In this document: in pieces, positions 41,701 through 57,060 of the stretch | How positions within the stretch are numbered: the stretch's first letter is position 1 | Layout: every line of letters starts with the position of its first letter | Source of the DNA: Microgenomates group bacterium Gr01-1014_16 | Lineage (GTDB): Bacteria > Patescibacteriota > Microgenomatia > CAZETR01 > Amesbacteraceae | Length of the DNA: 62,712 bases | Assembly: GCA_007376345.1 (NCBI GenBank) | Contig: VMGA01000003.1 | Location: 1-62,712, forward strand | Direction of reading: 5' to 3' | Made by a program: the position numbers and the translations under genes | Notes under the pieces: model-generated | Told to the model about the DNA's origin: nothing | The model's database searches: none | What the model saw: only the letters and a program-made list of their open reading frames with translations

Positions 41701-42387
41701 TTATTCCCCCCGTTCCCTTCTTTTTTCCAGCTCCTCGGATAATTCCGAAATAATCCGCACTACTCTGTCCGGATACGGCACCGCCCGGGCTTCGGCCGTT
41801 CCGTCGGACGCCGCCGTGGCCACAAACACATCGCCGTACTTAAACAATGATCGGAAAAACCCGCCGGCTACCATCGAAGGCTCCTCAATATGATTCAAAT
41901 TGGCATAACTCACCACCCGAGTCAATAAATTTATAAAGTCAATATCCACCACCCGCTCGTTTGTTACAAAAAAAACCGAGTAATACCAATTCAAAAACCG
42001 CTCCAGTCCATACGCCAGCACCCCCAGGTACCACATCAGCTTTCCCATCACTACAAACCTCACCGGCACAGTAGAAAATACTCCCACAGCCGTCAGCAAT
42101 TCCGGTAAAACCACTAACCCCATCATTACCAATATCCATTTCAAATTTGTGATCGGGTGCGCCCGCAACAGCAGCACAACTTCTTCATCATCCTGCTCAT
42201 TTATAAATCTCTTCCCCGGATTGACACAGTACGCCCCCATCATCTCCCTCCCCTGCTTCTCCCCGGACTTTTCCAATATCTGGGCCACAAACACCTTCGG
42301 GTCAAACCTACTTGCCCCTAACGTAGCTTCATGCGAAGTGGGGTCTACTGGCTTCACTGCATCTGGGGCTTGATAAACATCCGGCAT
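41701..42387 (-). CDS. membrane protein with a bacterial PH-like (bPH_2/YdbS-like) domain (tentative)
   Basis: Two TM helices are followed by ...NERVVDIDF...FKYGDVFVATA, resembling bPH domains. Confidence 0.4.
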   Translation of the reverse strand: MPDVYQAPDAVKPVDPTSHEATLGASRFDPKVFVAQILEKSGEKQGREMMGAYCVNPGKRFINEQDDEEVVLLLRAHPITNLKWILVMMGLVVLPELLTAVGVFSTVPVRFVVMGKLMWYLGVLAYGLERFLNWYYSVFFVTNERVVDIDFINLLTRVVSYANLNHIEEPSMVAGGFFRSLFKYGDVFVATAASDGTAEARAVPYPDRVVRIISELSEELEKRRERGE

Positions 42388-42503: not shown

Positions 42504-44240
42504 TTACTTTTTCTCTATATTAAACAGATAAGACTTGAGAGATAGCATCCCAGGAGCTCTTAAATTAAAGGCTTTATAAAAATTAGCCCCCGAAATGTTT
42601 ACCTCACCCCTATTAGTACTAAAAACTACCTGATTTGTCTGTCCATTACTGCCGTGTTTAATTGAAATATTTGTTACGTTTGTCACATTTCCCCCGTATT
42701 TTCCAGCCTCTTCAGCCATTTTTCCTTTACTCCACCCTGCCGTTCCGGTACACCCGTCCTCCGGCAGTATCCCGCTGGTGTCTCCCCCGCCGGCTACAAT
42801 AATCACCGCGTTTACCACATCTGCCATTTCTTCCGTCCGCAACCACGGGTGGCTTCGTCCACAGGTCTTGCCCGACCTCGACTTATACCACCCCTTATAA
42901 AACCACGGGCTTTTCGCCTTCACTTCCCACGCCCCGTCCGCCCACTTTGTCCAATCAGAAGTCGTGTCCCAAAATCCCGGCGTGCTGTGTCCACTCGCAC
43001 TGTACGCCTGCTGGTATCCCCCGGATGTTGACGCATACCAAGACGAAAACGACTTTCCTCCCGCCACCAGTACCCAACCCCTTGTCGCGTTCACCGCCTC
43101 CTCCCACCTCCCGCCCTTATTGGCCGGTTTATAAACTTGGCAAGCTTCAGTGGCACAAATCGACCCCGCTCCGTTGTTTGTGTAGGCCAGGGCATAGCTT
43201 CTCGCCGCCACTGCCTGTGCTTTCAGCGCTTCCATTCCCCCCTCGTCCCCCCAACTCCCCGGCATCTCGTAAATTCGCTTTACATAAGTTTCAATATCTA
43301 CCGTACCATACCCCCGCACACTTATATTTATATCCGTCCTATAAACCTTATCTAGACTTATTTCCCCATAATACGCCCGCAGTATCTGCTCCACATTTTG
43401 TCCAGCCTTCGCCCGTCCAAATGCTCCGTACTGGCTCATCCCCCGAAAATGCGGCGCCCCGAACGAAAACACCGCGAATGCCGGCGAAAATCCCGGATTA
43501 TAATCCGGCCGGGACGCCGGGTCGTCCGCCAGCGGCACATCTCCCACCGTCGTCGAAAACACTCCCGTCCTCTCCGCCAACAATTCCTGTTGCCGGGCAG
43601 ACAGCGCCGCTATCTTCCCTCCCAAGTCCGTAACATATCTATCTGCTTTTGCCACCTCTCCCGCCAAAAACGTCGCCTGCTTATCCACCCTCACCCTCAA
43701 TCCGTCCAAATTCTTTTTTTGGACATTGAGCATTGAACTTTGAACATTCAAATCATTTATTTCTCTAGAGATCCCTGATATGACTTCTCTATCATTCGCC
43801 GCCAGTCTCTCTCTATACCCAGCGTCTCTAAAAAACTTCTCCGCCGTCCCCGAAGAAAGTAGTACCAACAGCATGGGCTGTTCCCTCCTCCTCACATAAT
43901 CCTGCCTGATCTTCGCCGCCAGCAACTCCTCTTTCACCCCAATCTTCACCTCCCTCTCAAAAATATCCTTACTCAACTTATCCAGCTGCTTGTCCAAATT
44001 TGAAATCTGATTCTTGAGCCCTGCAACCTGAACCCTGAGTCCTTCCAATTCTTTAGCGTTGGTTGCGTTTGCCTTTGCTATCGCATCCAAAATCCCGGAA
44101 TACTTACCAATGCACTGCCCGATCTTAACCGCATCCGTCAAGCCTCCCGGATTGTCACACTCCTCAGCGCGGACGAGCGACAAAGCCACAAAGTAGCAAA
44201 GTAGCAAAGTAACTAATGCCAAACTTACTCGCTTAACCAT
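42504..44240 (-). CDS. SpoIID/LytB-domain protein with an N-terminal coiled coil
   Basis: Signal peptide, a long coiled coil, then RGMSQYGA...ALKAQAVAARSYAL...CATEACQVY, typical of SpoIID. Confidence 0.75.
   Translation of the reverse strand: MVKRVSLALVTLLLCYFVALSLVRAEECDNPGGLTDAVKIGQCIGKYSGILDAIAKANATNAKELEGLRVQVAGLKNQISNLDKQLDKLSKDIFEREVKIGVKEELLAAKIRQDYVRRREQPMLLVLLSSGTAEKFFRDAGYRERLAANDREVISGISREINDLNVQSSMLNVQKKNLDGLRVRVDKQATFLAGEVAKADRYVTDLGGKIAALSARQQELLAERTGVFSTTVGDVPLADDPASRPDYNPGFSPAFAVFSFGAPHFRGMSQYGAFGRAKAGQNVEQILRAYYGEISLDKVYRTDINISVRGYGTVDIETYVKRIYEMPGSWGDEGGMEALKAQAVAARSYALAYTNNGAGSICATEACQVYKPANKGGRWEEAVNATRGWVLVAGGKSFSSWYASTSGGYQQAYSASGHSTPGFWDTTSDWTKWADGAWEVKAKSPWFYKGWYKSRSGKTCGRSHPWLRTEEMADVVNAVIIVAGGGDTSGILPEDGCTGTAGWSKGKMAEEAGKYGGNVTNVTNISIKHGSNGQTNQVVFSTNRGEVNISGANFYKAFNLRAPGMLSLKSYLFNIEKK
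43721..43749 (+). repeat. TTGA(A/G)C(A/T) heptamer tract, in-frame in the SpoIID-like gene
   Basis: Encodes LNVQSSMLNVQKK. Confidence 0.85.
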
Positions 44241-44254
44241 AGTAAAATCTTATC

Positions 44255-44920
44255 ATGGCCGATTTGGTCTACGCTTTCCTGGACGAGTCCCCATCCCTCA
44301 ATAGTTCCGACCTCTTTTTCTGCGTGGCCATAATCCTCACCGATCTGTCCACCCAAAAACCCCTTGCCAAAATCCTCAAAAAAGCCCGGGGCAGACTAGA
44401 CCGTTCCCATAAAACGTCTGCGGAAATCAAATTTCACAAAGCCTCCGCTGCCACCAAGCGCTACATTCTCTCCGAACTGGCTAATATCGATATCGAAATT
44501 GTTGCCACCGTCATCGACAAAAACCACCGTCAGGTTTCCGACACTCCAGCAAATTATGGCCTGGTCATTGGCGCCGCTGTCGCCCAGTGCCTTACCCTCC
44601 ATCCTAACCTAGCCGTCACCCACGACCGGCATTACACCAATCGGCAACAATACACCGAATTTGTCAATTCCGCCAACCAATCTCTCCAGGTTTCTTCCCG
44701 TAAGCCATCGAGCGTCTTCTTCTCTCCTCCCGCCGACAGTCAAGTCCAACCCTTAATTCAACTGGCCGATTTCGTCGCCGGCGCACTTAATTACAAATAC
44801 AACCGCAAAGATTCCCAATACTTCAACCTTATCCGCACTCTGATCAAAAAAGAGTTTGTGTTTAAATGGACAGAATTAAAAAGAGCGGCGACCCCCGGGC
44901 TCCGATTCTCACCCCGCTAA
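44255..44920 (+). CDS. DUF3800-family protein
   Basis: N-terminal YAFLDES and C-terminal PLIQLADFVAGAL are the DUF3800 hallmarks. Confidence 0.75.
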   Translation: MADLVYAFLDESPSLNSSDLFFCVAIILTDLSTQKPLAKILKKARGRLDRSHKTSAEIKFHKASAATKRYILSELANIDIEIVATVIDKNHRQVSDTPANYGLVIGAAVAQCLTLHPNLAVTHDRHYTNRQQYTEFVNSANQSLQVSSRKPSSVFFSPPADSQVQPLIQLADFVAGALNYKYNRKDSQYFNLIRTLIKKEFVFKWTELKRAATPGLRFSPR

Positions 44921-45023
44921 ACGGGGATTAAGGCCGCACAAGGCGGCCTAGAGACACCGGGACTTACTCGTCCGCTCTCCAACCGCTATTATATACTTCC
45001 CATCAATGCTAAACTATCGGTAG

Positions 45024-45881
45024 ATGAAAAAACTCCCCCTATTCCTACTTACACTCTTCTACTCTTCCACTCTTCTACTCTTATTTCCTACCCCCGCCCC
45101 CGCCGCCGACTGCATTCCCACTAGCTGGTGCAAAGATCCTTCCATTGGTTGTACTTCTGGAGAAACATACCGAGGAGATCTCACTTGTCCTGATCTGGGC
45201 TGGGGCACAAACGGATCCTGCTGCGTCCCAGTCGGGGTCCCAACCCCAGTTATTCCCCCCACTTGCCCAGGAACTTGCAAAACTGGATGTAACCCCCTCA
45301 CTGAAGATAGTTGGGGTACTTCCTCTTGCATGGTTACCGGCTCCACTCCATTTTGTTGCGTCCCAAAACCAACTGCTGTCCCCCCCCCCGCTGGTTGCGT
45401 AAATCCGATTTGCGGCTCTACTGGTTGTTCCTGTGCAGCGTCAGGTAAGCCCGCCCAGTGTTATGACAACAGTGTCTCTCCCCCAAAAATTGTCTTATGT
45501 TGTGACTCTATGTCTCAATGCACCCCAGGCACTACCCCTATTCCTGTCGGTAGCGGCGGAGGCGCTTTTGTATTTTGCGACGTCAACGGAAGCAAAGGTG
45601 TTCCCACGGCCCTCGGTTGTCTGAATATTACCGGCAAGCAGACAATTTCCCAGATCCTCGGCTGGGCGGTGGGAGTTGGAGGAGGCATTGCCTTCCTGCT
45701 CATTGTCTACTCCGGCTTCCAGATGGCCACAGCTAGTGGCGACCCCAAGCGCGTCAAAGCCAGCCAGGAACTATTGACCGCCGCCCTCGGCGGCCTCGTC
45801 CTCATCGTTTTATCAGTCGTCTTGTTAAACTTCATTGGTGTCAAAGTTCTTAATTTGGGCGGCCTCGGATTTGGCCCCTAA
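45024..45881 (+). CDS. T4SS-pilin-like (VirB2/TrbC-type) protein with a large Cys-rich N-terminal domain
   Basis: Signal peptide, an ectodomain of about 190 aa with many Cys, then the two-helix pilin module ...GGGIAFLLIVYSGFQMATASGDPKRVKASQELLTAALGGLVLIVLSVV. Confidence 0.55.
   Translation: MKKLPLFLLTLFYSSTLLLLFPTPAPAADCIPTSWCKDPSIGCTSGETYRGDLTCPDLGWGTNGSCCVPVGVPTPVIPPTCPGTCKTGCNPLTEDSWGTSSCMVTGSTPFCCVPKPTAVPPPAGCVNPICGSTGCSCAASGKPAQCYDNSVSPPKIVLCCDSMSQCTPGTTPIPVGSGGGAFVFCDVNGSKGVPTALGCLNITGKQTISQILGWAVGVGGGIAFLLIVYSGFQMATASGDPKRVKASQELLTAALGGLVLIVLSVVLLNFIGVKVLNLGGLGFGP
45048..45083 (+). repeat. CTCTTCTA/CTCTTCCA tract forming the signal-peptide core of 45024..45881
   Basis: Encodes LTLFYSSTLLLL. 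Confidence 0.65.
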
Positions 45882-45911
45882 TTCATGATTCATAATTCAT
45901 AATTCAAATAT

Positions 45912-46223
45912 ATGCGCCTCGCCCAACTTGATATCCCCAACCCGCCCATCCTTCAAAGACTGGAAGTCCCTTTCTCCGGAACTGAGGCTGTCACCAAACT
46001 CACCTCCCGCTTTCTCCTTTTCACCATCGCCGGCGCCGGGTTTGTTTTCGTCATCCAGGTCGTCATGGCCGGGTATAAATATTTGACCAGTCTGGGCGAG
46101 CCGGCCAGCATTCAATCCGCCACCAAGCAATTGTTACACGCCACAACCGGCCTGCTCGTCGTCATCACCACTTTTTTCATCATCCAAATCCTCGAAACCA
46201 TCTTCGGCCTTGACATTCTATAG
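45912..46223 (+). CDS. T4SS-pilin-like (VirB2/TrbC-type) small two-TM protein
   Basis: Two helices flank LTSLGEPASIQSATKQLLHATTGLLVV. Same module as its neighbours. Confidence 0.55.
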   Translation: MRLAQLDIPNPPILQRLEVPFSGTEAVTKLTSRFLLFTIAGAGFVFVIQVVMAGYKYLTSLGEPASIQSATKQLLHATTGLLVVITTFFIIQILETIFGLDIL

Positions 46224-46246
46224 ACATTGTCATACACTAAACACTG

Positions 46247-46513
46247 GTGAAGCACGTTGACTGGAATGTGGAAAAAAACTCCTGGCTCAAAAAAGAGCGT
46301 GGTGTTTCTTTCGAAGATGCCATTTCGGCAATCATCGAAGGTCATTTACTCGAAGTTTCTCCCCATCCCAATCCCAAATATGCCCACCAGCAAATTTTTA
46401 TAGTCGAGATGAACAAATATATCTACGTCGTCCCATTTGTGGAAGACGAAGAAAAAATTTTTCTCAAAACCATTATTCCCAGCCGTAAGGCCAAGAAAAA
46501 GTATCTAAAATGA
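46247..46513 (+). CDS. BrnT-like toxin
   Basis: W..EKNSWLKKERGVSFEDA...IFLKTIIPSRKAKKKY follows the BrnT/DUF497 pattern. Confidence 0.7.
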   Translation: MKHVDWNVEKNSWLKKERGVSFEDAISAIIEGHLLEVSPHPNPKYAHQQIFIVEMNKYIYVVPFVEDEEKIFLKTIIPSRKAKKKYLK

Positions 46514-46788
46514 AAAACTACAAACTCGATCCGGAAGAAAAAGCCATTTTAAAAGCCTACAACGCGGGTGAGTTTAAAACTATCAACGATCCCAAAGCGC
46601 TGGCTCGGTATCAGGAGTACGCCAAATACACCCTTCAACAAAAAACCAAAAACATCAACATTCGCCTAACGTTAAAAGACCTTCTGGATCTCAAAAACCG
46701 GGCCGCCCAATCCGGCCTCCCTTACCAAACTCTCGTTTCTCTCCTCATCCGCCAGTTCAATGAAAACAAACTCCCCCTGACAATTTAG
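46510..46788 (+). CDS. BrnA/CopG-type antitoxin
   Basis: NIRLTLKDLLDLKNRAAQSGLPYQTLVSLLI. It overlaps the toxin by 4 nt. Confidence 0.7.
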   Translation: MKNYKLDPEEKAILKAYNAGEFKTINDPKALARYQEYAKYTLQQKTKNINIRLTLKDLLDLKNRAAQSGLPYQTLVSLLIRQFNENKLPLTI

Positions 46789-46806
46789 GTGTATAGTTAA
46801 ACAACG

Positions 46807-47142
46807 ATGTCCAACCTTCTCGCCATCTCCATTCCCGACCAATTTTATCTCAACCAAACCGCCGGCGTCAAAAATATTAATTCCGTCGGCGCTCTCGTTT
46901 CCGTCATTCTCCCCAATGTCATGATCGCCGCCGGGGTTATCTTTTTCCTTCTTATTTTGGGCGGGGGTTTCGGTATGATCAAAAGCGCCGGGGCGGAAGC
47001 CAATCCCCAAATGGCCGCCAAAGCCAAGGCCGCCGTTACCTACGGCTTTGCCGGCTTCTTGATAGTTGTCACCGCCTACTTTATACTTCAATTAGTCCAA
47101 ACCGCCACCGGCGTTAATTTAAACAACCCAAATCTGCCATAA
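46807..47142 (+). CDS. T4SS-pilin-like small two-TM protein
   Basis: IAAGVIFFLLILGGGFGMIKSAGAEANPQMAAKAKAAVTYGFAGFLIVV. Confidence 0.55.
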   Translation: MSNLLAISIPDQFYLNQTAGVKNINSVGALVSVILPNVMIAAGVIFFLLILGGGFGMIKSAGAEANPQMAAKAKAAVTYGFAGFLIVVTAYFILQLVQTATGVNLNNPNLP

Positions 47143-47144
47143 CC

Positions 47145-47501
47145 ATGTTCGGAGTGTTCGGAACTATCGATAATCCTTTCACAACTCTGGGTGGCCCACT
47201 GGCCACTGCTGGTGCCGAAGGCCAAGGCCTCATTCTCATCCTCAACTCTCTCGTTAAATTCGTCATCGTCCTCGCCGGCCTGTATACTTTCTGGAATCTG
47301 ATAGCCGCCGGCTTCATGTTCATGTCCGCGGGCGGTGATTCCAAAGCCATCGGCAAGGCCTGGGACAAAATCTGGCAATCCCTCATTGGTTTATTACTAG
47401 TCGCGGGTTCGTTCGTGTTAGCCATCATCTTCGGCTATCTCATCTTCGGTCCCCAAAACGCCATGATTCTTATTCAACCCCAGATTTTCAAGCCTCAATA
47501 A
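47145..47501 (+). CDS. T4SS-pilin-like small two-TM protein
   Basis: FMSAGGDSKAIGKAWDKIWQSLIGLLLVAGS. Confidence 0.55.
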   Translation: MFGVFGTIDNPFTTLGGPLATAGAEGQGLILILNSLVKFVIVLAGLYTFWNLIAAGFMFMSAGGDSKAIGKAWDKIWQSLIGLLLVAGSFVLAIIFGYLIFGPQNAMILIQPQIFKPQ

Positions 47502-47503
47502 CT

Positions 47504-47914
47504 ATGAAATTACTTGCTCAAGGCGTCCCTCTCGGAAATATAAATGGTATTGGGCCGTTAGGTACTGTCGCCACCCAAACCGACGCCTTTGTCGCTTTTA
47601 CTACGGTTTTATCAACTACCGTCGGCGTCCTCACTGTCTCTGCCGGAATTTGGTTTATTTTTCAAATTTTTGGCGGATCTCTCCAATGGCTTACAAGTGG
47701 CGGAGACAAACAAGGATTAGAAGCCGCAAAAAAAAGAATTACCCATGCCATTGTTGGTTTGCTCATGGTCGTCTTATCCTACGCCCTCATATCAATTATC
47801 GGCCTTATATTTGGGTTAAATATTCTATCCCCAATAGGATCCCTATTAGGAATTAATCTTCCCGGCGGAGGCGGTGGCGGAGGTACTTGTCCAATAATCG
47901 GAGTACCTTGTTAA
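47504..47914 (+). CDS. T4SS-pilin-like protein with a Gly-run and Cys tail
   Basis: LTSGGDKQGLEAAKKRITHAIVGLLMVVLS, then GGGGGGTCPIIGVPC. Confidence 0.55.
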   Translation: MKLLAQGVPLGNINGIGPLGTVATQTDAFVAFTTVLSTTVGVLTVSAGIWFIFQIFGGSLQWLTSGGDKQGLEAAKKRITHAIVGLLMVVLSYALISIIGLIFGLNILSPIGSLLGINLPGGGGGGGTCPIIGVPC

Positions 47915-47925
47915 CCATAAAGATT

Positions 47926-48264
47926 ATGAAGCTGTTAGCTCAAGGGTTAGACATCACCAACCCCGCCCTTCTTCCAGCCGTCGGTACTGGCGATGGTCGC
48001 ACCATTCTTCAGACATTTTTAACCAACTTCATCACTATCGGTTTCGGTATTGGCGCTATTGTTTTGGTATTTATGCTCATTTCCGGCGGAATTAAGTTTA
48101 TTGCCGCCGGATCAGACAAAGATGCAGTTCAACATGCCTCCAAACAATTAACCCACGCCCTGATCGGCATCGTTATTCTCCTTTCCGTCTACGCCATCGT
48201 GGCTTTAATCGGCGGCGTCTTCGGCATCAACATCCTCCAGGTGAACTTTCCGGTAATTCAATAA
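47926..48264 (+). CDS. T4SS-pilin-like small two-TM protein
   Basis: Start at MKLLAQGLD, which parallels MKLLAQGVP of the previous gene. IAAGSDKDAVQHASKQLTHALIGIVILLS. Confidence 0.55.
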   Translation: MKLLAQGLDITNPALLPAVGTGDGRTILQTFLTNFITIGFGIGAIVLVFMLISGGIKFIAAGSDKDAVQHASKQLTHALIGIVILLSVYAIVALIGGVFGINILQVNFPVIQ

Positions 48265-48265
48265 T

Positions 48266-48814
48266 ATGGCCGATCTTGATCTTACCCGTCTTCCCTCTGC
48301 CCAGCTCCAAAAGCTCACCCTTATCAAGCCCACCAATCTCTCTTCGGCCATCATCCAATTCATGTTTGTCATCGCCGGTGTCCTTTTTTTCTTATACTTC
48401 CTGACCGGCGCCGCCCAATGGGTTGCCTCCGGTGGCGACAAAGAAGGCCTGGACAAGGCAAGTAAAAAAATCAAACACGCCCTCATCGGTCTGTTTATCG
48501 TCTTGGGCATCTACGGTTTCGGTGCCATCTTAAATGGCCTTACCGGCGTCGATCTTTTCCGTGTCTGCTTCCCGGGACCAACCACTTCCGCATTTTCCTG
48601 TCCCCCTTCCGGCATCGGTTCCGGCGGCGGAGGAGGCGGCGGAGGAGGAGGTGGCCCGCCCGGAACATCCGCCTGTCGTTGCTTCAATGGAGGCTGCGCA
48701 TCCGTAGGCCAAATTGGTTATTTTAATGGAGGTTGTTACCGTTGCACCACAACACAGTGGGATGGACCTATTGGCGGAAGTTGTCCGCCCATTTCCTGCG
48801 GTACTTGCAATTAG
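48266..48814 (+). CDS. T4SS-pilin-like protein with a poly-Gly linker and a C-terminal Cys-rich knot
   Basis: VASGGDKEGLDKASKKIKHALIGLFIVLG, then G11, then CRCFNGGCASVGQIGYFNGGCYRCTTTQWDGPIGGSCPPISCGTCN. Confidence 0.55.
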   Translation: MADLDLTRLPSAQLQKLTLIKPTNLSSAIIQFMFVIAGVLFFLYFLTGAAQWVASGGDKEGLDKASKKIKHALIGLFIVLGIYGFGAILNGLTGVDLFRVCFPGPTTSAFSCPPSGIGSGGGGGGGGGGGPPGTSACRCFNGGCASVGQIGYFNGGCYRCTTTQWDGPIGGSCPPISCGTCN

Positions 48815-48865
48815 CTATATTTACCCCTAAACTTGAACTAACTTTGAAAGGAGGTGAGACAATAA

Positions 48866-49270
48866 GTGACTAAACTTCACAAAACTTTAGGTTACGCCGC
48901 GGCGTTTGGCAGCCTTTTGGCCGTCTCGCCTCTCTCGGCTCTGGCCCAAGGAGTCCAGGATATCAATCTGGCCCTTCCCGGTGGTAGCAGTTTTTCCAAT
49001 GTCGTCACCTGGAACGCTACCCGGATCGTCCAGGCTCTGATCAATATCATCTTGGTGACCGTCGGCCTGATCGCCTTTTTCTGGTTGTTAATCGGCGGTG
49101 TCCAATGGATTATGGCCGGAGGTGACAAGGAAGGGACCGAAAAAGCCAGGAAGAGAATCACGGCCGCCCTCATCGGGTTGGTTATCGTTTTCTCTGTCTT
49201 TGCTTTCACCCAAATCCTGTCCGCCTTCTTTGGTATCAACTTGCTGTTCTTCAGCATCAACGCTATCTAA
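48866..49270 (+). CDS. T4SS-pilin-like protein with signal peptide (GTG start)
   Basis: Strong SD AAAGGAGGTGA lies 8 nt upstream of the GTG. IMAGGDKEGTEKARKRITAALIGLVIVFS. Confidence 0.55.
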   Translation: MTKLHKTLGYAAAFGSLLAVSPLSALAQGVQDINLALPGGSSFSNVVTWNATRIVQALINIILVTVGLIAFFWLLIGGVQWIMAGGDKEGTEKARKRITAALIGLVIVFSVFAFTQILSAFFGINLLFFSINAI

Positions 49271-49354
49271 TTGGGTACGCTGCCCCCTTCGCTCTTCGAA
49301 GCCTTGGCGAAGAAGAGGCCGGGGGTGGCGTGGAAAGAGGGAAAGTAAAACAAT

Positions 49355-49639
49355 ATGCCCGCCAAGCTATCTAATCTTGATTCAGTCTTTTCTTCAATCT
49401 TAAACGTCGCTCTGGCCGGAGTCGGCATCGGCGTCGTCATCATGTTTATCGTCGGCGGATATCAATTTATGATGGCCGGTGGGGACAAAGAGGCCGCCGC
49501 TCGTGCCCGTCTCACCCTGACTTACGCCGTCATCGGCCTCATCGTCGCTCTTTCCGCCTGGATCATCCTCGCTCTCCTGGGCAATTTCCTAGGGATCAAC
49601 TTCACTCTCTTCACCGTCTGCTGGGGCACAGGGTGTTAA
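49355..49639 (+). CDS. T4SS-pilin-like small two-TM protein with a CxxxC tail
   Basis: MMAGGDKEAAARARLTLTYAVIGLIVALS...FTVCWGTGC. Confidence 0.55.
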   Translation: MPAKLSNLDSVFSSILNVALAGVGIGVVIMFIVGGYQFMMAGGDKEAAARARLTLTYAVIGLIVALSAWIILALLGNFLGINFTLFTVCWGTGC

Positions 49640-49675
49640 TTTTCGCCTCCGCCGCCCTCGTGATATAATTTCCCC

Positions 49676-49900
49676 ATGCCAAAAACATTCACCCACATCA
49701 ACGTCGATCCGGAAATCCTCGGCGGCAAACCAGTCATTCGCGGCACCCGCATTCCGGTTTACGTCATCGTCAATCTCACGGCACAAGGTCAAAATACAAA
49801 ATATATCCTCAAAAACTACCCCGACCTGACCCCCCAAGACATCACCGAAGCCCTCCAATATGCCGCTTGGACCACCCAGCTTTCGGAAATGTATGCCTAA
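49676..49900 (+). CDS. DUF433 antitoxin-like protein
   Basis: DPEILGGKPVIRGTRIPV...YPDLTPQDITEALQYA is the DUF433 signature. Confidence 0.75.
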   Translation: MPKTFTHINVDPEILGGKPVIRGTRIPVYVIVNLTAQGQNTKYILKNYPDLTPQDITEALQYAAWTTQLSEMYA

Positions 49901-50264
49901 ATTACTCGTTGACGAGAATCTCTCTCCAAGATTAACAGTGTTTCTCTTTGATTTGGGCTACGAAGCTAAACATGTCCGAGACATTAGCCTTAAAGGCCAA
50001 CCGGATTACAAAATCGTCGCCTGGGCCAAGAAAAACAATCACATCATAATTACCCGCGATTTAGGCTTCGGCCTCACCTACTCCCAATCGTCCAATCCAT
50101 CGGGAATTATTCTCCTGCGCTCAAAAATCGACACCATCGAAACCCTCCAAGACATCCTCCATCACCTCCATACCGAAAAAGTACTCTCAAATCCCGAAAT
50201 TGACCGGTCATTGATCATCGCCACTCCCACCAAAACCCGCATCATAAATCTCAATATTGCCTAA
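49893..50264 (+). CDS. DUF5615 (Mut7-C/PIN-like) toxin-like protein
   Basis: Start at MPKLLVDENLSPRL. The ..IIITRDLGF pattern matches DUF5615, the usual partner of DUF433. Confidence 0.7.
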   Translation: MPKLLVDENLSPRLTVFLFDLGYEAKHVRDISLKGQPDYKIVAWAKKNNHIIITRDLGFGLTYSQSSNPSGIILLRSKIDTIETLQDILHHLHTEKVLSNPEIDRSLIIATPTKTRIINLNIA

Positions 50265-50292
50265 CTGCTATTTATGCTAATATGGAACTAGG

Positions 50293-50382
50293 ATGAAAAA
50301 ACTCCTGCTCCTCATCTCCTCCATCCTTTTAGTCGCCGTAGCCTTGGCGAAGGCTGACCCCGCCTCCGCCGCCATGATATAA
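50293..50382 (+). pseudogene. orphan signal-peptide remnant (29 codons)
   Basis: MKKLLLLISSILLVAVALAKADPASAA followed by MI-stop. It ends in the 13-bp cgcctccgccgcc that also encodes the PASAA cleavage region of 51036..52397. Confidence 0.4.
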
Positions 50383-50389
50383 TTTCCCC

Positions 50390-50653
50390 ATGACCTACAA
50401 ACTCTACGATCGGATTGAGGTCAATCCCAAGATTTCTTCCGGCAAGCCTGTAATTGCTGGCACCAGAATTGCCGTCGGGTTCATCATTCAGCTTTTAGCC
50501 AACGGCTGGACCATCAACCAAATTATGAAAGGCTATCCTAATCTCAAAAAGGATGATGTGTTAGCCTGCCTCGAATACGCCCGGCAAACAATCGAAACCC
50601 AGTCCTTTCTCCCCCTCGGCTCTTCCCCTTCGCTGCAAGTAGCCCAAACATGA
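50390..50653 (+). CDS. DUF433 antitoxin-like protein (second copy)
   Basis: NPKISSGKPVIAGTRIAV...YPNLKKDDVLACLEYA. Confidence 0.75.
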   Translation: MTYKLYDRIEVNPKISSGKPVIAGTRIAVGFIIQLLANGWTINQIMKGYPNLKKDDVLACLEYARQTIETQSFLPLGSSPSLQVAQT

Positions 50654-51018
50654 AGTTATTAGCCGATGAAAACGTTTCCCGCTATCTCATCGACGAACTC
50701 AAACATTTAGGATACGCCGTCAGGGATCTCAAACAAATCTCTCCCCGTGCCTCTGATTCTCAAGTCGCCCAAATAGCAGTTTCCGCCGCCGAAATTCTCA
50801 TCACTCACGATTCGGACTTGGTCAGCCTTCTTTCCGGCAAAAAATATCCCAGCCTCAAACTCATCCACCTGGACACTCCCAACCTTACGGTCAACCAATG
50901 CCTCCAAATAGCCAGGTTACTACACGAGAACGGATTCCTCCAAAAAGAATTTACATTTCTCCAGGTTCATCTCCATGGCCAATTACTCTCTATCTCTTTA
51001 CATCCCCCCACCCAATAA
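50650..51018 (+). CDS. DUF5615 (PIN-like) toxin-like protein (second copy)
   Basis: MKLLADENVSRYL...ILITHDSDL. It overlaps the DUF433 gene by 4 nt. Confidence 0.7.
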   Translation: MKLLADENVSRYLIDELKHLGYAVRDLKQISPRASDSQVAQIAVSAAEILITHDSDLVSLLSGKKYPSLKLIHLDTPNLTVNQCLQIARLLHENGFLQKEFTFLQVHLHGQLLSISLHPPTQ

Positions 51019-51035
51019 GTTATTGTATACCTGCC

Positions 51036-52397
51036 ATGAAAAAACTCGCCGCAACTCTTCTTACACTTTTATACTTTTACACTGTTACACTTTCGTCCGC
51101 CCCCCCCGCCTCCGCCGCCTGGTACAACCCCACCACCGAAGAATTCTACGGCAAAGTTTACGGCACCAACCCCGTCAGCTCCAATGATGAAATCTTTGGC
51201 GAACGCTACACATTTGCCCAAGTCAATTGGATAGTAAATAGCTTAGCTATTATCTTCGCTCCTCCAAACATGACCCCTACCCAATTTCTCGACATTATTA
51301 GAGGAATTATCGCTTCTCTTGTCGCAGGCACACAACCAACCTTCCAACAATACGCCCAACTGGGTGTTCCTGGAATTCTCATGGGCGCCATAAACGAAAC
51401 TTACACCAACCCCCCGGCTTCCGGCATAAAATACGTCAGCGACACCCTCGCCAAGTTTGATCCCGCACCTCCGGTCTACGCCCAAGGGTACGGCTATAAA
51501 TCCCTCGAAATCGCCCAAACTCTCTGGAAAGCCTCCCGCAATATGGCCTATCTTCTTATGATTGTCCTTTTGGTTGTTTCTGGCTTCATGGTCATGTTCC
51601 GCGTCAAAATCAACCCCCAAACAGCAGTTACTCTCCAACTAATGATTCCCAAAATCATCATCACTTTACTACTGGTCACTTTCTCCTATGCAATTGCCGG
51701 CTTTGTCATCGATCTCATCTATGTCGTCATCACTTTCATTATCTCGATGCTCGCCATGCCCGGCATCGCCGTCATTACCGACGCCCCCAGAGCCATCCGG
51801 TTCTTCACGGGGGGATATATTGGTCCAATTGTTTACTTCATCGCCCCCTGGATAATGATCGCGTTTCTTGGTGCGGTAGGTGGTGGCCTTATAGGTCTTG
51901 TTGGCGGACCACTCGGAGCACTAATAACCGGAGCAATAGTCCCCATCATTTCCCTTATTGTTATGATCTTTCTTGTCTGGACTCTCTTCAAAATCTGGTG
52001 GCTCCTCCTTAAAACTTACATCGTTCTTCTGTTTTCAATTATAGTTGGTCCCTGGCAAATCATGCTGGGGTTACTTCCGGGTCAATCTGGTTTTGGCCCT
52101 TGGTTAAGAAATATAATTGCCAACGCCTCCGTCTTCGTCGCCGTCCCTATAATGTTCCTTATCAACATGCTTTTTTGGAAACCCGGATTCGGCTTAGACG
52201 CTTTGGCTGGACTCTTTAGTCCTGTGGGTGTAGTCCTTCCCTCAACTGGTGTCAGCCCCGGTCTTCCCTTTGTGAACGGCGGCGGAATTCTCAACTTAGC
52301 CCTTGGTTACGCCGTCCTTGCCCTCACCCCCAAAATCGCCGAAATCATCAGGGATGCCCTCAAAGTCCCAAATGGGAATCTTAACTGGCACTGTTAA
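51036..52397 (+). CDS. polytopic membrane protein, VirB6/TrbL-like (tentative)
   Basis: Start at MKKLAATLLTLLYFYTV (signal peptide). An ectodomain of about 150 aa is followed by six or more Gly-rich TM helices. It sits directly after the pilin array. Confidence 0.4.
   Translation: MKKLAATLLTLLYFYTVTLSSAPPASAAWYNPTTEEFYGKVYGTNPVSSNDEIFGERYTFAQVNWIVNSLAIIFAPPNMTPTQFLDIIRGIIASLVAGTQPTFQQYAQLGVPGILMGAINETYTNPPASGIKYVSDTLAKFDPAPPVYAQGYGYKSLEIAQTLWKASRNMAYLLMIVLLVVSGFMVMFRVKINPQTAVTLQLMIPKIIITLLLVTFSYAIAGFVIDLIYVVITFIISMLAMPGIAVITDAPRAIRFFTGGYIGPIVYFIAPWIMIAFLGAVGGGLIGLVGGPLGALITGAIVPIISLIVMIFLVWTLFKIWWLLLKTYIVLLFSIIVGPWQIMLGLLPGQSGFGPWLRNIIANASVFVAVPIMFLINMLFWKPGFGLDALAGLFSPVGVVLPSTGVSPGLPFVNGGGILNLALGYAVLALTPKIAEIIRDALKVPNGNLNWHC
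51060..51095 (+). repeat. TTTTACAC-type tract forming the signal-peptide core of 51036..52397
   Basis: Encodes LTLLYFYTVTLS. Confidence 0.75.
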
Positions 52398-52407: not shown

Positions 52408-55083
52408 TCACCTTCCAGAGAATACAGAGGTTATTCCCGAAGCCTTAAGAATAGACTGAATCTTTTTGTCCAGAGAATTATCCACGTACTTTTCCCCCGT
52501 CAATGGATCGACCACGTGCTTCAACCTCGAGTTGGTCATATTACTAATAACTGCAAAAAGGTAGGGTCGTTTTTCCAGCCTTAAATTACGAGAGTCCTGA
52601 TCTACGCCCAAACAATTTGCCTCAATCCACCCCAACGATTCGGGTGTATTAATATATCTTCCCAAATACTTCCCCACCTCGCTTCCCCTTATCTTCGCAA
52701 GCGCGTTTGCCAAATCAACTCCCCAAGCCTCTTCCATAGCTGAAGTGGTTTTTGCAGGAAGAGCCCTCTTTTTCTCATCCCCGGTAACATATTCATTAAC
52801 CGTCGTCACTGAACTCCACAAGTCACCATAATAACCCTTAAATTCTTGAGCCTCCACTTTATCCCACTGGATAGCCTCACCATTAATCAACCTTTCAGCC
52901 AACGAAGGGCCTCCTTTTTCACCTATTACCTCCAACATGCTCACAAACATCGTCTCCGGAAACGGTGTCATTCCAGGTTGACCTAGCTTTTCTCGAATGC
53001 TTGGCTGCATTCCGTTCTCAGCCAACCAGTTACCTAGCGACCCACCCCAGCTCTCAATAGTTTCAGCCGCTTCTTCATCAGTCTTATGAAGCTTCAGTTT
53101 AGCTTTGATCTTCGCCAAAGGATGAAACTCTGTTCTGACTTGTTCTGAATAAACCGGTGTTCCTGGGGGTAATTTTCTATCTTTATCGGCAGACTCTGCC
53201 AAATGGGAAAGAAATATCAAATTCCAAGCATTTGCCACCTTGCCTTCGGCCACCACTTTAGGTTCCACATTAAACATCCCAGCCTCGTTGGCAATCCCCT
53301 CATGAGCTATCAAGCCCATAGCAACTCCCTCTTTTGCTTTGGTAAATTTGGAAATATCACAAAACTCTTCCATTGCTTCCTTGTTTTTAAACCTCACCCT
53401 AAATGTTCCGTTCGGCTCTGGAGAATCGTCTTGTTCAAAATACCTCTGAACTAATTGCTCCAAAGCCTCCCTTCCCCCAGCCGTTTCGTAAAACTGCTGA
53501 ATATCCAATTTGCCAATTGCCGGAAGAGCTTCATTTTTTTGTACTGCCTCTAAATTTGTGGGTCCATAAAGTTTTTTAACATATGCGCCATTTGCCAACG
53601 ATTCGTATAGTTCTGCCTGGTCTTTCGCCTCTTGATCCAGCTCCTGATACCACCGGGGAGGAAAGTCCGTCCAGTTGGTATGAGCGGCCGATTGGCCTTT
53701 TATTCTTCTTATAAAATCACCGTAACCCGTCCCTCTCCCCATTGCTCTCTCCAAAGCCTTAGTTATTGCATCCGGATCCTGACCTGTTATTGGCGGCTGA
53801 CCGTGTGATACACCGGCTTCTCGTTTTGTAGTTCCCCCACTACCTCCACCGCCTCCTCTCAAAATCTCCAACGCCTTCAACATCGCCCCTTCTGCACTTC
53901 CAGCTTTGCAATACGAACATGCAGCCCCCGTTTCCTTAGGAGCACCACATCGACTACACGTCTTTTCCCTCTCCACAACCGCATTAAATTGATCCTCTAT
54001 ACTTTTTCCTTTCTTCGCCTCTGCTGCAATTTTCTCCATCGTCTCCCTCAAAAGTTTCCTCTCCTCAGTATCCCCCTGATTTCTCTCCTCTTGTTTTTCT
54101 AAAACGGTGGTCACTCTATCCAAAATCTTCAGCAGCGCCCCCTCTTGTCCATTATTCGCAGCCTCCGTAACCACCGACTCCGCCGGAACCGCAGGTGCCG
54201 CCGGCGCCGCTTCAGTTTCACTGGCTTCTCTAGCCGCCCCCCCCGCCGGCCTTGCCGATTCTACCATCGGTCTACCTTCTTCTTTCATCCTCCTTCCCAA
54301 ATTTCTGTCTGCTTCATATTGTTTCAACAACAAATCCAACGCATCCCCTGCCTTTTCAATTACAATACCAAGTGCAACCGTCGCCGCTTTGTCTACCAAC
54401 GGATTTTGCCACCACTCTTTTTCAGGATTTCCCTCCGGCGCCTGCCGCGCAGATGAACCGGTCGTCTCCTCTTCGTCTCTTTTATTATCACCCCCCCCGG
54501 CTTCTCTTGCCGCTTTCACCCTCATCTCCCACACGTTCATATCCCAAGTATCGCTATTGATCTGTCCGCTCACTGACCCCACCGCGTCAAGCACATCCTG
54601 TCTCGGGCTTAGGCTTCCCCGTTCATGTACCTGAGCCGCCAATCTTACCATCTCCCCCCCCACCCATCCCCCAACTTTATCAGCAACCCCACTTTCCAAT
54701 AATCCGTCCGCCACCAATTTGTCTAATATCTTTTGGGCCTCCCCTTCTGCCCCCGGCGCCGCTTTCAATAATGCTTTAGCGATTTCACCCCCCCTTCTTT
54801 CCGCTCCAATGGGAACATTTGCTAGTGCCGTCTTTGCCTCGTTAATTGCAATTTCAGGCAACCTCAGCTGCCCAGCAATATTGCTCACCTGCCCAACTTC
54901 ACCTCTGATCCTCGTCAGTTCGTCAGGATCCCCCCGGGCAGCCATTGCCTCATCCAGCTTTCTCAAATAAGGAAAGTCCATCCTCGCTGCTTTCACAAAG
55001 CCTTCGGTTATATCAAATTCCCCGGACTTGGGTGCTCCTTTCGCGCCATTTTCTTGTGGAGCCGTCATATTACTTGCGGGCAT
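52408..55083 (-). CDS. large (891 aa) hypothetical protein with no recognisable enzymatic domain and a central zinc ribbon
   Basis: Long uninterrupted ORF. CSRCGAPKETGAACSYCK (CxxC..CxxC), a Gly run, and Ala/Glu-rich linkers. No TM helix or signal peptide seen. Confidence 0.6.
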   Translation of the reverse strand: MPASNMTAPQENGAKGAPKSGEFDITEGFVKAARMDFPYLRKLDEAMAARGDPDELTRIRGEVGQVSNIAGQLRLPEIAINEAKTALANVPIGAERRGGEIAKALLKAAPGAEGEAQKILDKLVADGLLESGVADKVGGWVGGEMVRLAAQVHERGSLSPRQDVLDAVGSVSGQINSDTWDMNVWEMRVKAAREAGGGDNKRDEEETTGSSARQAPEGNPEKEWWQNPLVDKAATVALGIVIEKAGDALDLLLKQYEADRNLGRRMKEEGRPMVESARPAGGAAREASETEAAPAAPAVPAESVVTEAANNGQEGALLKILDRVTTVLEKQEERNQGDTEERKLLRETMEKIAAEAKKGKSIEDQFNAVVEREKTCSRCGAPKETGAACSYCKAGSAEGAMLKALEILRGGGGGSGGTTKREAGVSHGQPPITGQDPDAITKALERAMGRGTGYGDFIRRIKGQSAAHTNWTDFPPRWYQELDQEAKDQAELYESLANGAYVKKLYGPTNLEAVQKNEALPAIGKLDIQQFYETAGGREALEQLVQRYFEQDDSPEPNGTFRVRFKNKEAMEEFCDISKFTKAKEGVAMGLIAHEGIANEAGMFNVEPKVVAEGKVANAWNLIFLSHLAESADKDRKLPPGTPVYSEQVRTEFHPLAKIKAKLKLHKTDEEAAETIESWGGSLGNWLAENGMQPSIREKLGQPGMTPFPETMFVSMLEVIGEKGGPSLAERLINGEAIQWDKVEAQEFKGYYGDLWSSVTTVNEYVTGDEKKRALPAKTTSAMEEAWGVDLANALAKIRGSEVGKYLGRYINTPESLGWIEANCLGVDQDSRNLRLEKRPYLFAVISNMTNSRLKHVVDPLTGEKYVDNSLDKKIQSILKASGITSVFSGR

Positions 55084-55098
55084 AAACCCATTTTAACA

Positions 55099-55587
55099 TC
55101 ATTCTTTAACCATCCAGTTTGTTTCTGAGGAAACCTTGTCTGTCACTGGCGATTTTCCCTGAGTCAAGTCCACACCTGAACCAGAAAATCCCATTGTTCT
55201 CGCTTCTTTGACCGCTTTTCTCTTTTCCCACGCCTCATCGACAGCTATAGGGTTAGCAACTTTTTGCAAAGCCCAGATTGACACTGCTCCCAATACGGCT
55301 GTCGCTAAACTCTTACTTACCAAGCCGTTATCCAATGCCCCCGCATCCACTCCCCTAAATACAAAAACACCATCCGGGATAATTCCTTCTTCAGGTATTT
55401 TACTAACTATAAAATACATCGCACCGGACGCAGCCGCCCCCAGTAATCCCTTGGTCCAAGGACTGACTCTTGGATCTTTCACCAAATCAGCCGCTACCAT
55501 AATGTTATCCAAAACAAACTCCCCCAATTGATCTACAACTTTGGCGGTATCCTGAAACTCTTTTAGTATTCCATCCAATCCACTCAT
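55099..55587 (-). CDS. hypothetical protein, DUF1232(YkvA)-like membrane segment (tentative)
   Basis: LVKDPRVSPWTKGLLGAAASGAMYFIVSKIPEEGIIPD resembles the DUF1232 core. It lies 15 nt upstream of the 891-aa gene. Confidence 0.4.
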   Translation of the reverse strand: MSGLDGILKEFQDTAKVVDQLGEFVLDNIMVAADLVKDPRVSPWTKGLLGAAASGAMYFIVSKIPEEGIIPDGVFVFRGVDAGALDNGLVSKSLATAVLGAVSIWALQKVANPIAVDEAWEKRKAVKEARTMGFSGSGVDLTQGKSPVTDKVSSETNWMVKE

Positions 55588-55618: not shown

Positions 55619-55813
55619 TCAAGACTTTTGCTTCAATGATTTCCTTACCTCATTTAGTCCAAGTGCAACCAACCCCACCCCCAAAGCTAGCTTCTTTCGA
55701 TTCTCCCACGCAAGTCTAGCCAAATTTTCAAGCTTAAATATAAAAATATTCGCCCTATCTCTCACCTCAGCCCTCAATTCCCCATTTTTCCGCCAAGCCT
55801 CAAATTTTTCCAT
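55619..55813 (-). CDS. small hypothetical protein with a C-terminal TM helix
   Basis: 64 aa, KKLALGVGLVALGL. It is tightly packed within the operon. Confidence 0.35.
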   Translation of the reverse strand: MEKFEAWRKNGELRAEVRDRANIFIFKLENLARLAWENRKKLALGVGLVALGLNEVRKSLKQKS

Positions 55814-55819
55814 AAACTA

Positions 55820-56173
55820 CTATTTATCAGCCAACAATAAAGCAAGATACGCTCCTCCACTACAAAGAGCACACGCCCCGAGCGAACACCCCAAAGCCAC
55901 CTCCGCCAACGTCCTGCCACACCCTTTCTTCTTTTCTACTTTCGGCATCTCAACTGGAGCTGCGTGACTTCTGTGCGTTACCCGATGAACTGAATCGCTC
56001 ACTGCTTCCGCTGCCCCACCCAACACCGCCTGGGCTTTTAATTTCAGTGCCTCCAATGGTTCAAAAATAAATCTTTCGTACTCTTCGTTAGTCAAAGTTC
56101 CCTGACTAAAATCAGCCGCTTCACCTGGAAACATATGAAAAACGTGATCCGGAGGATATTCCTTTCTTTTCAT
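55820..56173 (-). CDS. small hypothetical protein with a Cys-rich C-terminal TM helix
   Basis: Start moved to MKRKEYPPDH, because the upstream codons are the translated 22-bp repeat motif. C-terminus GCGRTLAEVALGCSLGACALCSGGAYLALLL. Confidence 0.4.
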   Translation of the reverse strand: MKRKEYPPDHVFHMFPGEAADFSQGTLTNEEYERFIFEPLEALKLKAQAVLGGAAEAVSDSVHRVTHRSHAAPVEMPKVEKKKGCGRTLAEVALGCSLGACALCSGGAYLALLLADK

Positions 56174-56208
56174 TTCGCAATAATATACTATCGGTCGGAT
56201 TTTCGCAA

Positions 56209-56415: not shown

Positions 56416-56444
56416 ATCAAATCCAAAGATGATATTCTAAATTA

Positions 56445-56753: not shown

Positions 56754-56776
56754 CATATCTGTGATATCATCATCCT

Positions 56777-57055: not shown

Positions 57056-57060
57056 CCCCG

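Follow-up and report, generated by a model that had tools for sequence, protein, structure and literature searches.

We examined the gene set at 45024 to 52397 of contig VMGA01000003.1 (GCA_007376345.1) in the setting of the whole stretch that was analyzed (positions 1 to 62,712, 62,712 nucleotides [nt] of the forward strand; hereafter the window). This region is probably the pilin and channel part of a chromosomal type IV secretion system (T4SS) locus typical of Microgenomatia, with its closest relatives in Candidatus Amesbacteria. It holds nine small tandem genes, which as judged by sequence comparison form eight ancient, order-conserved slots with a ninth gene as an extra copy of slot 7, followed by a polytopic membrane protein that is a candidate VirB6. 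The nearest homologues of the polytopic protein, the pilins, and their neighbors are found in Candidatus Amesbacteria and other Microgenomatia, and the window carries housekeeping genes (dnaG, rpoD, smpB, the transfer-messenger RNA [tmRNA], and tRNAs), pointing to a chromosomal Microgenomatia origin. The locus has here been invaded by a DUF3800 gene, a BrnTA pair, and two DUF433/DUF5615 pairs, and another toxin-antitoxin island lies downstream. An earlier note on this DNA, made from the sequence alone, had described nine pilin paralogues with Cys-rich decorations, a VirB6-like protein, and no ATPase in reach.

Nine tandem genes with a pilin-type module

The nine open reading frames (ORFs) lie between 45024 and 49639, all on the plus strand, and encode products of 94 to 285 amino acids (aa), here numbered p1 to p9 in array order. 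Eight of them match the Pfam family PF18895 (T4SS_pilin), four above its curated gathering score of 26.6 bits: p1 (45024 to 45881; 34.3 bits), p6 (47923 to 48264; 34.3 bits), p8 (48866 to 49270; 30.2 bits), and p9 (49355 to 49639; 39.4 bits). Scores below the threshold were obtained for p2 (45912 to 46223; 22.0 bits), p3 (46807 to 47142; 23.9 bits), p5 (47504 to 47914; 22.4 bits), and p7 (48266 to 48814; 26.4 bits), and p4 (47145 to 47501) had no Pfam match. Each of the nine was nevertheless recovered by a hidden Markov model (HMM) built from the other eight, with E values from 3e-9 to 2.5e-24 (1.2e-19 for p2, 3.1e-13 for p3, and 5.3e-12 for p4). A search of the 587 six-frame ORFs of the window with the nine-pilin HMM found no tenth copy. 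The genes are 21 to 33% identical to the first sequence of their alignment, and one toxin-antitoxin pair is interposed among them. For p6, the mechanical ORF begins at a TTG at 47887, and the ATG at 47923 yields the N terminus MKLLAQG as in p5. The ORFs and the leave-one-out models thus bear out the nine tandem plus-strand paralogues that the earlier note had described.

A hydropathy scan shows the same build in all nine products, namely, two hydrophobic segments of transmembrane (TM) length separated by a short loop with two to five Lys or Arg residues. The conserved motif that the note had placed between the two helices is also present: the loop follows (A/S)GGDKxxxxxAxK(K/R)Ixx(A)xIGL strictly in p4, p7, and p8 and in relaxed form in the remaining six. 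The AlphaFold model of p8 is a helical hairpin formed by residues 51 to 84 and 88 to 122, with a predicted local distance difference test score (pLDDT) of 88 to 95, and the N terminus of p8 resembles a signal peptide ending in ALAQG. A database search with p8 returned 256 relatives with identities of up to 73%; among the matches listed, nearly all are annotated with PF18895, and one homologue bears PF18895 and PF04956 (TrbC/VirB2) together.

In NCBIfam, the best match for seven of the nine is NF045849, the Mbov_0395/MMCAP2_0565 family of pilin-like conjugal transfer proteins of Mycoplasma integrative and conjugative elements (ICEs), with E values from 6.7e-7 to 0.04 (0.007 for p4). The same family is a lesser match for p2 and is not matched by p7. 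These matches span the whole 80-residue model, at 13.6 to 28.9 bits, all below the curated cut-off of 40, so that by its own measure the proteins fall outside the family. As other weak NCBIfam matches, p1 hit the pLS20_p028 conjugation-system transmembrane family and p2 hit two Mycoplasma ICE transmembrane families.

Taken together, the small genes encode VirB2-like pilins, each a two-helix membrane hairpin with a basic loop. The identification of the module as T4SS pilin type in the earlier note holds up in the HMM search that it had called for, given the eight PF18895 matches, the homologue that also carries PF04956, and the linkage of the array to VirB3 and VirB4 in relatives. The sub-threshold NCBIfam matches suggest that monoderm-type T4SSs may have VirB2-like proteins of their own, and if they do, this bears on whether the pilins of Patescibacteria came down together with the system or were recruited from diderm ones. 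A promoter and terminator scan of 44.2 to 52.6 kb gave counts equal to the shuffled expectation and therefore no operon map.

Eight order-conserved slots

We collected 80 loci around relatives of the polytopic protein, extracted ORFs with up to 10 kb of flank per side, and scanned them with the window's pilin HMM and with the proteins of a complete Woesebacteria genome (L046; CP055308). We also used two other assemblies of the window's own sequence, L001 (Logan), whose contig is identical, and L082/L083 (ENA), as well as a close relative (L084) and several Amesbacteria-like loci (L002 to L005, L007, and L008). For each window pilin, we recorded the array position of its best match in each of 53 other genomes. 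In 39 of these genomes, the best match of p1 was the first of the eight array positions. The match was slot 3 for p3, slot 4 for p4, and slot 5 for p5 in 38 to 41 genomes (41 for p4), slot 6 for p6 in 33, and slot 8, the last, for p9 in 49. The best conserved slot is slot 7, to which p8 maps in 50 of the 53 genomes. The least distinctive pilin is p2, which maps mostly to slot 2 (19 genomes) and has the weakest positional orthology of the nine. Since p7 maps to slot 7 in 33 genomes and to slot 6 in 16, being most like slot 7, we regard it as an extra copy.

The slots were examined further by an all-against-all comparison of the pilins of 36 genomes with exactly eight genes. Over 10,080 query-genome comparisons, the best match in the other genome lay in the same slot in 92.8% of cases (84 to 100% per slot). 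Median identity was 43 to 64% within a slot between genomes versus 31% between slots within a genome. The eight-slot order is common to genomes labeled Amesbacteria, Woesebacteria, Collierbacteria, and Blackburnbacteria. Array copy number ranges from 6 to 12 among genomes, and bigger arrays arise mainly by duplication of slot 1 or slot 7. Such slot-for-slot orthology in a fixed order implies that the divergence of the paralogues is older than the separation of these lineages and that they have been retained in the same order ever since.

Because the slots are orthologous and not interchangeable, the assembly to which they contribute would most likely be heteromeric, with fixed roles for its subunits. 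The comparisons favor eight nonredundant parts of one assembly and fit a fast-changing antigenic or host-range repertoire poorly. The earlier note had suggested a heteropolymeric or variable filament; the eight orthologous slots favor the first of these terms and argue against the second.

Apart from the slots themselves, we observed recurrent insertion of a non-pilin gene at the junction between slots 2 and 3, namely, the BrnTA pair in the window and an AAA_14/DUF4143 gene in L002 (2701 to 3966). Gaps of about 1.3 kb separate the second and third pilin genes in L027, L063, L070, L076, and L077, and similar gaps, shifted by one or two positions, occur in L041, L059, and L060. This junction may be an operon boundary or an insertion hot spot.

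Cysteine-rich additions to the pilins

The Cys-rich decorations listed in the earlier note are all real, although two of its counts need correction. The product of p1 has a signal-peptide-like N terminus and a Cys-rich extension of about 170 aa ahead of the two-helix pilin module, with 22 Cys residues in its first 199 positions, laid out as three C-C-C-C-CC modules with Pro-rich linkers between them and then a conserved Cys pair. The gene caller applied to L001 kept only the last 123 aa of p1, and the long ORF is supported because slot-1 orthologues also bear an N-terminal extension. In 36 genomes, slot 1 always contains Cys (2 to 33 residues) and has an N-terminal extension, which is usually long and starts with a signal peptide. 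Slots 2 to 7 are almost always free of Cys.

At the C-terminal side, p5 ends in G7-TCPIIGVPC (seven Gly residues, not the six first counted), and a similar tail with a Cys pair is found in L004. The tail of p7 has a G11 run and 10 Cys residues, not 12, of which 8 follow the Gly run; no Cys-rich tail like it was found in the slot-7 orthologues sampled. A C-terminal Cys pair, as in the CWGTGC loop of p9, occurs in the last pilin of every Amesbacteria-like locus listed above.

The usual T4SS locus in relatives

In relatives, the array belongs to a longer gene cluster of recognizable T4SS content. The order runs from a SpoIID gene on the opposite strand through about eight pilins, a secreted Cys-rich protein of 800 to 1500 aa, the polytopic protein, and a large opposite-strand gene to a PrgI/VirB3-like gene (PF12666), a TraC-like protein of about 200 to 230 aa, VirB4, another large protein, and, often, dnaN (L046 and L084). 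Of the 58 loci whose upstream flank spans 8 kb or more, 56 have at least six same-strand pilin genes, and 48 have a gene for the large secreted protein between the pilins and the polytopic gene. Among the 55 loci with at least 9 kb downstream, VirB4 starts 3.3 to 7.8 kb past the polytopic gene (median, 4.9 kb) in 51.

Two annotated examples illustrate the cluster. The complete genome L046 has PrgI (PF12666), VirB4 (PF19044/PF03135), and dnaN, and L084 has PrgI, the TraC-like protein annotated as PF26593, VirB4, and dnaN. The VirB4 proteins of relatives match PF19044, PF12846, and PF01935, with a weak match to PF03135, and the sources name them VirB4 components, one of them more exactly a "VirB4-like conjugal transfer ATPase, CD1110 family." Across these lineages, VirB4 identity is 75 to 91%. 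A search with one such VirB4 gave 8000 matches at an E value of at most 1e-50, the best 120 at 74 to 91% identity, too many for any one of them to be attributed to this organism. The earlier note had allowed that the proteins might turn out to be generic small membrane proteins unlinked to any secretion ATPase in complete genomes. The linkage of VirB4 in 51 of 55 loci, among them that of the complete genome L046, speaks otherwise.

A candidate divergent VirB6

The array is followed by a gene for a polytopic membrane protein on the plus strand (51036 to 52397). Its ORF of 499 aa begins at 50898, and M47, at 51036, is the likelier start, as a signal-peptide-like segment begins there. Relatives number at least 585 in species-representative genomes, none of them bearing a Pfam domain, and those with informative titles all come from Microgenomatia lineages; Candidatus Amesbacteria are the closest, at about 50% identity, followed by Woesebacteria, Collierbacteria, Shapirobacteria, and Blackburnbacteria at 30 to 39%. 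In relatives, the gene is preceded by the pilins and the large secreted protein and followed by the VirB3/TraC-like/VirB4 genes, and in the window it comes after the array.

An AlphaFold model built with 51 homologues is all helical, with many long helices and a mean pLDDT of 77. Among its PDB matches, the highest probabilities belong to TrwI/VirB6 chains of the R388 stalk complex, led by 7o3v_G with a probability of 0.96 and a target-normalized TM-score of 0.48; the F and J chains of 7o3v have probabilities of 0.90 to 0.91, and the E values of the top TrwI matches are 0.3 to 0.4. Over the TrwI/VirB6 set as a whole (7o3v F, G, and J and 8rt9_F), probabilities are 0.60 to 0.96, target-normalized TM-scores 0.43 to 0.48, and E values 0.3 to 1.8. 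The other fold matches listed, mostly G protein-coupled receptors and designed repeat proteins, have TM-scores of about 0.1 to 0.2. On the basis of this modeled fold and of its conserved position in the cluster, the protein is likely a divergent VirB6 of Microgenomatia, and its family is a candidate for the VirB6 component that is seldom recovered by HMM searches of these bacteria. The label VirB6/TrbL-like in the earlier note is weakly supported by the TrwI fold matches and the cluster position and has no backing from the Pfam searches described below.

A rearranged window without the ATPase block

A Walker A scan of ORFs longer than 100 aa found no credible P-loop ATPase anywhere in the 62.7 kb. 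Walker A motifs do occur in DnaG and in a coiled-coil stretch of an 891-aa protein, and neither is regarded as the ATPase sought; a third, in a 129-aa stop-to-stop frame at 41984 to 42373, lies antisense inside a 228-aa gene and was likewise set aside. From the polytopic gene to the window end, 10.3 kb pass without the PrgI/TraC-like/VirB4 block. The window ends inside glyA (61643 to 62712; serine hydroxymethyltransferase-like by translation), at the exact base at which the two other assemblies end, and a repeat or strain-variable junction probably lies just beyond this break. An exact-protein look-up of the window's own polytopic ORF found nothing; look-ups of its full-length form and of the last complete gene led to those two assemblies, which because of the common break do not extend the window. 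The ATPase block may lie on another contig, or it may have been lost. The statement that no ATPase is in reach is thus true of the window, which has neither a P-loop ORF nor a VirB4 homologue, but it does not describe the system, whose VirB4 is nearby in most relatives. The missing ATPase reflects a rearranged, toxin-antitoxin-invaded locus together with a shared contig break, and it is no evidence for an ATPase-independent pilus.

Upstream of the array, synteny with L084 is intact, running from smpB through three genes and SpoIID to the array. The SpoIID-domain gene (42504 to 44240, minus strand; PF08486) serves as the upstream anchor and also precedes the array in L046 and L084. Between it and p1, the window has a DUF3800 gene (44255 to 44920, plus strand; PF12686), whose 3' end is overlapped by a DUF3800-III RNA motif (44882 to 44978, minus strand; RF02962, 71.4 bits against a gathering score of 43.8). 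This position is empty in L084 and L046.

The three toxin-antitoxin cassettes reported in the earlier note are confirmed by precomputed Pfam matches on the identical contig L001. A BrnT/BrnA-type pair (46247 to 46788, plus strand) occupies the junction of slots 2 and 3, with PF04365 (BrnT_toxin) and a weak PF12441 (CopG_antitoxin) match. Two DUF433/DUF5615 (PIN-like) pairs (49676 to 50264 and 50390 to 51018, plus strand; PF04255 and PF18480) sit where relatives have the secreted protein of 800 to 1500 aa.

A homologue of that large T4SS-linked protein is found elsewhere, about 11 kb upstream of the array, as a Cys-rich secreted protein of 794 aa (31719 to 34103, plus strand). It is roughly collinear with the 759-aa protein of L084 (25% identity; E value, 3e-14), and tblastn searches with the large proteins of L002 and L003 hit the same region with E values of about 2e-22. 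In our own reading of the sequence, its C terminus (PMQITRPTYE) looks like a lytic transglycosylase/SLT domain; it has no Pfam match. Next to it lies a frameshifted fragment that resembles the N-terminal part of this protein family (34094 to 35556, plus strand). It has tblastn matches in two frames and ends at a cluster of three tRNA genes (35563 to 35850), which points to a rearrangement there.

Downstream of the polytopic gene come an 891-aa and a 162-aa gene on the opposite strand, the toxin-antitoxin island, an RlaP-family gene, and glyA. The 891-aa protein (52408 to 55083, minus strand) is a conserved neighbor of the polytopic gene, with a phmmer match (E value, 3.9e-19) to a 642-aa protein at the same position in L046, and a minus-strand gene of similar size also follows the polytopic gene in L002, L003, and L084. 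The match to L046 is the sole phmmer link; the protein has no Pfam match and no significant pairwise similarity to its counterpart in L084. Its sequence is very divergent and contains a zinc-ribbon-like Cys4 motif (CSRC...CSYC) along with long, charged segments that look helical. Together with the gene for the 162-aa protein, its gene covers 52408 to 55587 of the minus strand. The island (55800 to 60420), dense in small toxin-antitoxin or defense-type pairs, holds a Gp49/helix-turn-helix pair, three HEPN/nucleotidyltransferase pairs, and small minus-strand ORFs without a family match, and it shows small indels between assemblies. Within it, a 133-nt repeat (58728 to 58860 and 60164 to 60296) is about 97% identical between copies.

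Two features of the window at large were also observed. Plus-strand GC skew is strongly negative nearly throughout (-0.13 to -0.50 in 2-kb windows), coming close to zero only at 12 to 16 kb, and the cumulative skew sinks steadily except there. Since the skew is still negative where genes are on the plus strand, it is not only an effect of the coding strand; it also gives rise to many long spurious antisense ORFs. The tmRNA (RF00023, 103 bits) adjoins an smpB-like gene on the opposite strand (38980 to 39761 for the two), overlapping it by 22 nt (39315 to 39336). This is an ordinary housekeeping setting, and the position of smpB is also kept in L084.

A proposed assembly and its alternatives

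The features above allow a model of how the parts might work together. By the positive-inside rule, the loop of each inserted hairpin would face the cytoplasm and its two termini the exterior, an arrangement that would suit the disulfide-rich additions at the N and C termini. A VirB4-driven machine, with the polytopic protein as a VirB6-like platform, would extract the hairpins and build from them a conduit that leads to the host cell and resembles a pilus or a stalk. The disulfide-rich N-terminal domain of slot 1 would be displayed at the surface, perhaps at the tip, and the Cys tails of slots 5 and 8 and of p7 would add extracellular disulfide loops. In its full form, the proposal is that the Microgenomatia T4SS has a defined pilus or stalk of eight VirB2-like subunits with a surface domain on slot 1, that the polytopic protein is the missing VirB6, and that the window holds this module uncoupled from VirB4. 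We advance this full form tentatively, as possible and somewhat short of probable.

Several results pull against a T4SS reading of the region. For the polytopic protein, no T4SS-relevant Pfam family was found at an E value of up to 1 in any of 51 family members, and the family has no NCBIfam match, no PDB-sequence match, and no sequence link to VirB6/TrbL (PF04610); the E values of its TrwI/VirB6 fold matches are not significant. The window also lacks 161 nt at 52369/52370 that are present in L001 (11335 to 11495) and L082. This deletion frameshifts the last 64 codons of the polytopic gene into 8 others, so that the conserved VPxFKYGTAFGEALGP tail is gone; either strain variation or an error in assembly could account for it. 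For the pilins, a Foldseek search of the p8 model against the PDB returned generic helical hairpins only (E values of 1.4 or more) and no solved VirB2, TraA, or TrwL, a result that is uninformative because the fold of a lone hairpin is too simple. When PDB sequences were searched with a profile of 82 pilins, no pilin was found either, only spurious matches to TM helices and designed proteins at E values of 0.006 or more. The PrgI/VirB3, TraC-like, and VirB4 proteins of relatives have no homologue in the 62.7-kb window, so that function of the locus in this genome is putative. Finally, a 2025 review (PMC12857230), in the part of its text drawn on here, treats a pilus of Patescibacteria as a possibility only, with no pilus seen in any Patescibacterium. 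That the pilins form a filament is therefore something that we infer.

A serious rival, if a rather unlikely one, is that the hairpins are no filament subunits and instead belong to the translocon of a monoderm-type T4SS, embedded in the membrane as, for example, a ring or a short stalk that spans membrane and wall, with the Cys-rich parts anchoring or decorating the mouth of the channel. The linked VirB4 is of the monoderm type (MPF-FATA, CD1110-like), and such systems are not known to build pili. Moreover, the best NCBIfam matches, although sub-threshold, are to an ICE family of Mycoplasma, which are wall-less monoderms, and a set of eight different subunits with fixed places is more in keeping with a defined complex than with a homopolymer. 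However, the Pfam family is modeled as a pilin, and disulfide-rich terminal domains of extracellular type suggest exposure at the surface. Sequence by itself cannot tell a short stalk from a long filament.

Decay is the next alternative. The locus in this genome would then be a remnant left after loss or relocation of VirB3 and VirB4 and invaded by selfish toxin-antitoxin genes, which we consider improbable. The 10.3 kb downstream without VirB3, TraC-like, or VirB4 genes, compared with a distance of at most 7.8 kb in 51 of 55 relatives, would fit such a history, as would the displaced large secreted protein with its frameshifted second copy, the 161-nt frameshifting deletion in the polytopic gene of this assembly, and at least seven accessory or toxin-antitoxin units in or beside the locus. 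Against this, all nine pilin ORFs are intact, each still matching its own slot best, and two other assemblies of the same population have an intact polytopic gene. The contig break is common to those two assemblies, and the ATPase module may lie on another contig. In the one Patescibacterium tested, the T4SS is essential.

That the paralogues are alternative, interchangeable major pilins with which the cell varies its antigens or adapts to different host strains, a role proposed for the VirB2 arrays of Bartonella and Anaplasma, is very unlikely: although the idea has been put forward for Patescibacteria in PMC12102498, paralogues in one array are only about 25 to 31% identical, and copy number (6 to 12) and tails differ among genomes, it leads one to expect lineage-specific expansions and gene conversion, whereas gene order is fixed, same-slot orthology reaches 92.8% across the 36 genomes, identity within a slot between genomes (43 to 64%) exceeds that between slots within a genome, p8 orthologues are up to 73% identical, and copy changes are mostly duplicates of slot 1 or slot 7.

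We therefore return to the pilin and channel part of a T4SS locus as the preferred reading. At least for Microgenomatia, the slot data point away from the published idea of variability and imply eight nonredundant parts of one structure. As targets for structure prediction, proteomics, and genetics, they single out slot 1, a candidate surface or tip subunit, and slot 7, the most conserved and possibly the major subunit. For the window itself, the result is mostly clarifying.

Comparison with known systems

Pilin arrays are an established feature of Patescibacteria. Quinonero-Coronel et al. (2025, Microb Genom; PMC12102498) surveyed this group by means of PF18895, PF04956, and CONJScan profiles and reported 441 VirB2 arrays of 2 to 11 pilin genes in 383 assemblies, abundant in Microgenomatia. 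The genes of an array are in tandem or one non-pilin gene apart, with a mean identity of 25% within an array, and no more than 1135 of 1948 assemblies have a pilin gene close to virB4. VirB6 homologues are called "scarce" in Microgenomatia, from which the authors infer extreme divergence, and the variability of the arrays is proposed to aid adaptation to the host. The review PMC12857230 describes a locus of Southlakia epibionticum with six sequence-divergent VirB2-like pilins and reports that this array and the T4SS are essential for growth of the bacterium on its host; it also cites Wang et al. (2023, Cell) for the pilin arrays of Patescibacteria T4SSs. The T4SS belongs to the small number of systems demonstrated to be indispensable to a cultivated Patescibacterium living as an epibiont.

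With two or more VirB2-like genes of low identity, in tandem or one gene apart, the window fits the published description of an array and is an instance of this already described phenomenon. It shares with the other patescibacterial arrays tandem, divergent (about 25% identity) PF18895/VirB2-like genes on the chromosome, abundant in Microgenomatia. Those arrays are associated with a monoderm-type VirB4, VirB3/PrgI, and TrsD/TraC-like proteins, often near dnaN/dnaA, and have no relaxase. The window differs in lacking the ATPase block and in having toxin-antitoxin genes in place of the large secreted protein. The remark in the earlier note that nine subunits are far more than classical T4SS loci carry is correct, but the excess was already a published hallmark of Patescibacteria, given the arrays of 2 to 11 genes and the six of S. 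epibionticum. The parts of PMC12102498 and PMC12857230 drawn on here describe neither the orthology by position of the eight slots, nor the obligatory presence of Cys in slot 1, nor the polytopic partner family.

The VirB2/TrbC and TraA pilins of diderm T4SSs (PF04956; T-pilus and F-pilus) are likewise small hairpins of two helices joined by a basic loop, some of them with an N-terminal leader, and share a neighborhood of VirB3, VirB4, and VirB6-type genes, which in the present case is found in relatives. Classical T4SS loci have one or two pilin genes, whose product forms a homopolymer with bound lipid. The array described here differs in its eight or nine distinct paralogues, in its monoderm host, and in having no sequence match or specific fold match to solved pilins. 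The Mycoplasma ICE pilin-like family NF045849 belongs to the same class of monoderm T4SS to which the VirB4 of Patescibacteria is related; in these elements its gene is probably single and not part of an array. As for VirB6/TrbL/TrwI, the polytopic protein has the same polytopic helical build and is likewise encoded between pilin genes and VirB3/VirB4, although at about 510 to 540 aa it is about twice as long as the resolved TrwI chains.

Finally, the minor pilins of type IV pili and the pseudopili of type II secretion systems follow a like logic, in which conserved, non-interchangeable paralogues occur together and some have domains that prime or cap the fiber. The likeness is one of logic only, as the protein family and the assembly ATPase are unrelated, and we claim no homology. 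To our knowledge, all characterized T4SS pili are homopolymers. If the proposed assembly is correct, Microgenomatia would differ from these in having a heteromeric T4SS filament, organized like the major and minor sets of type IV pili.

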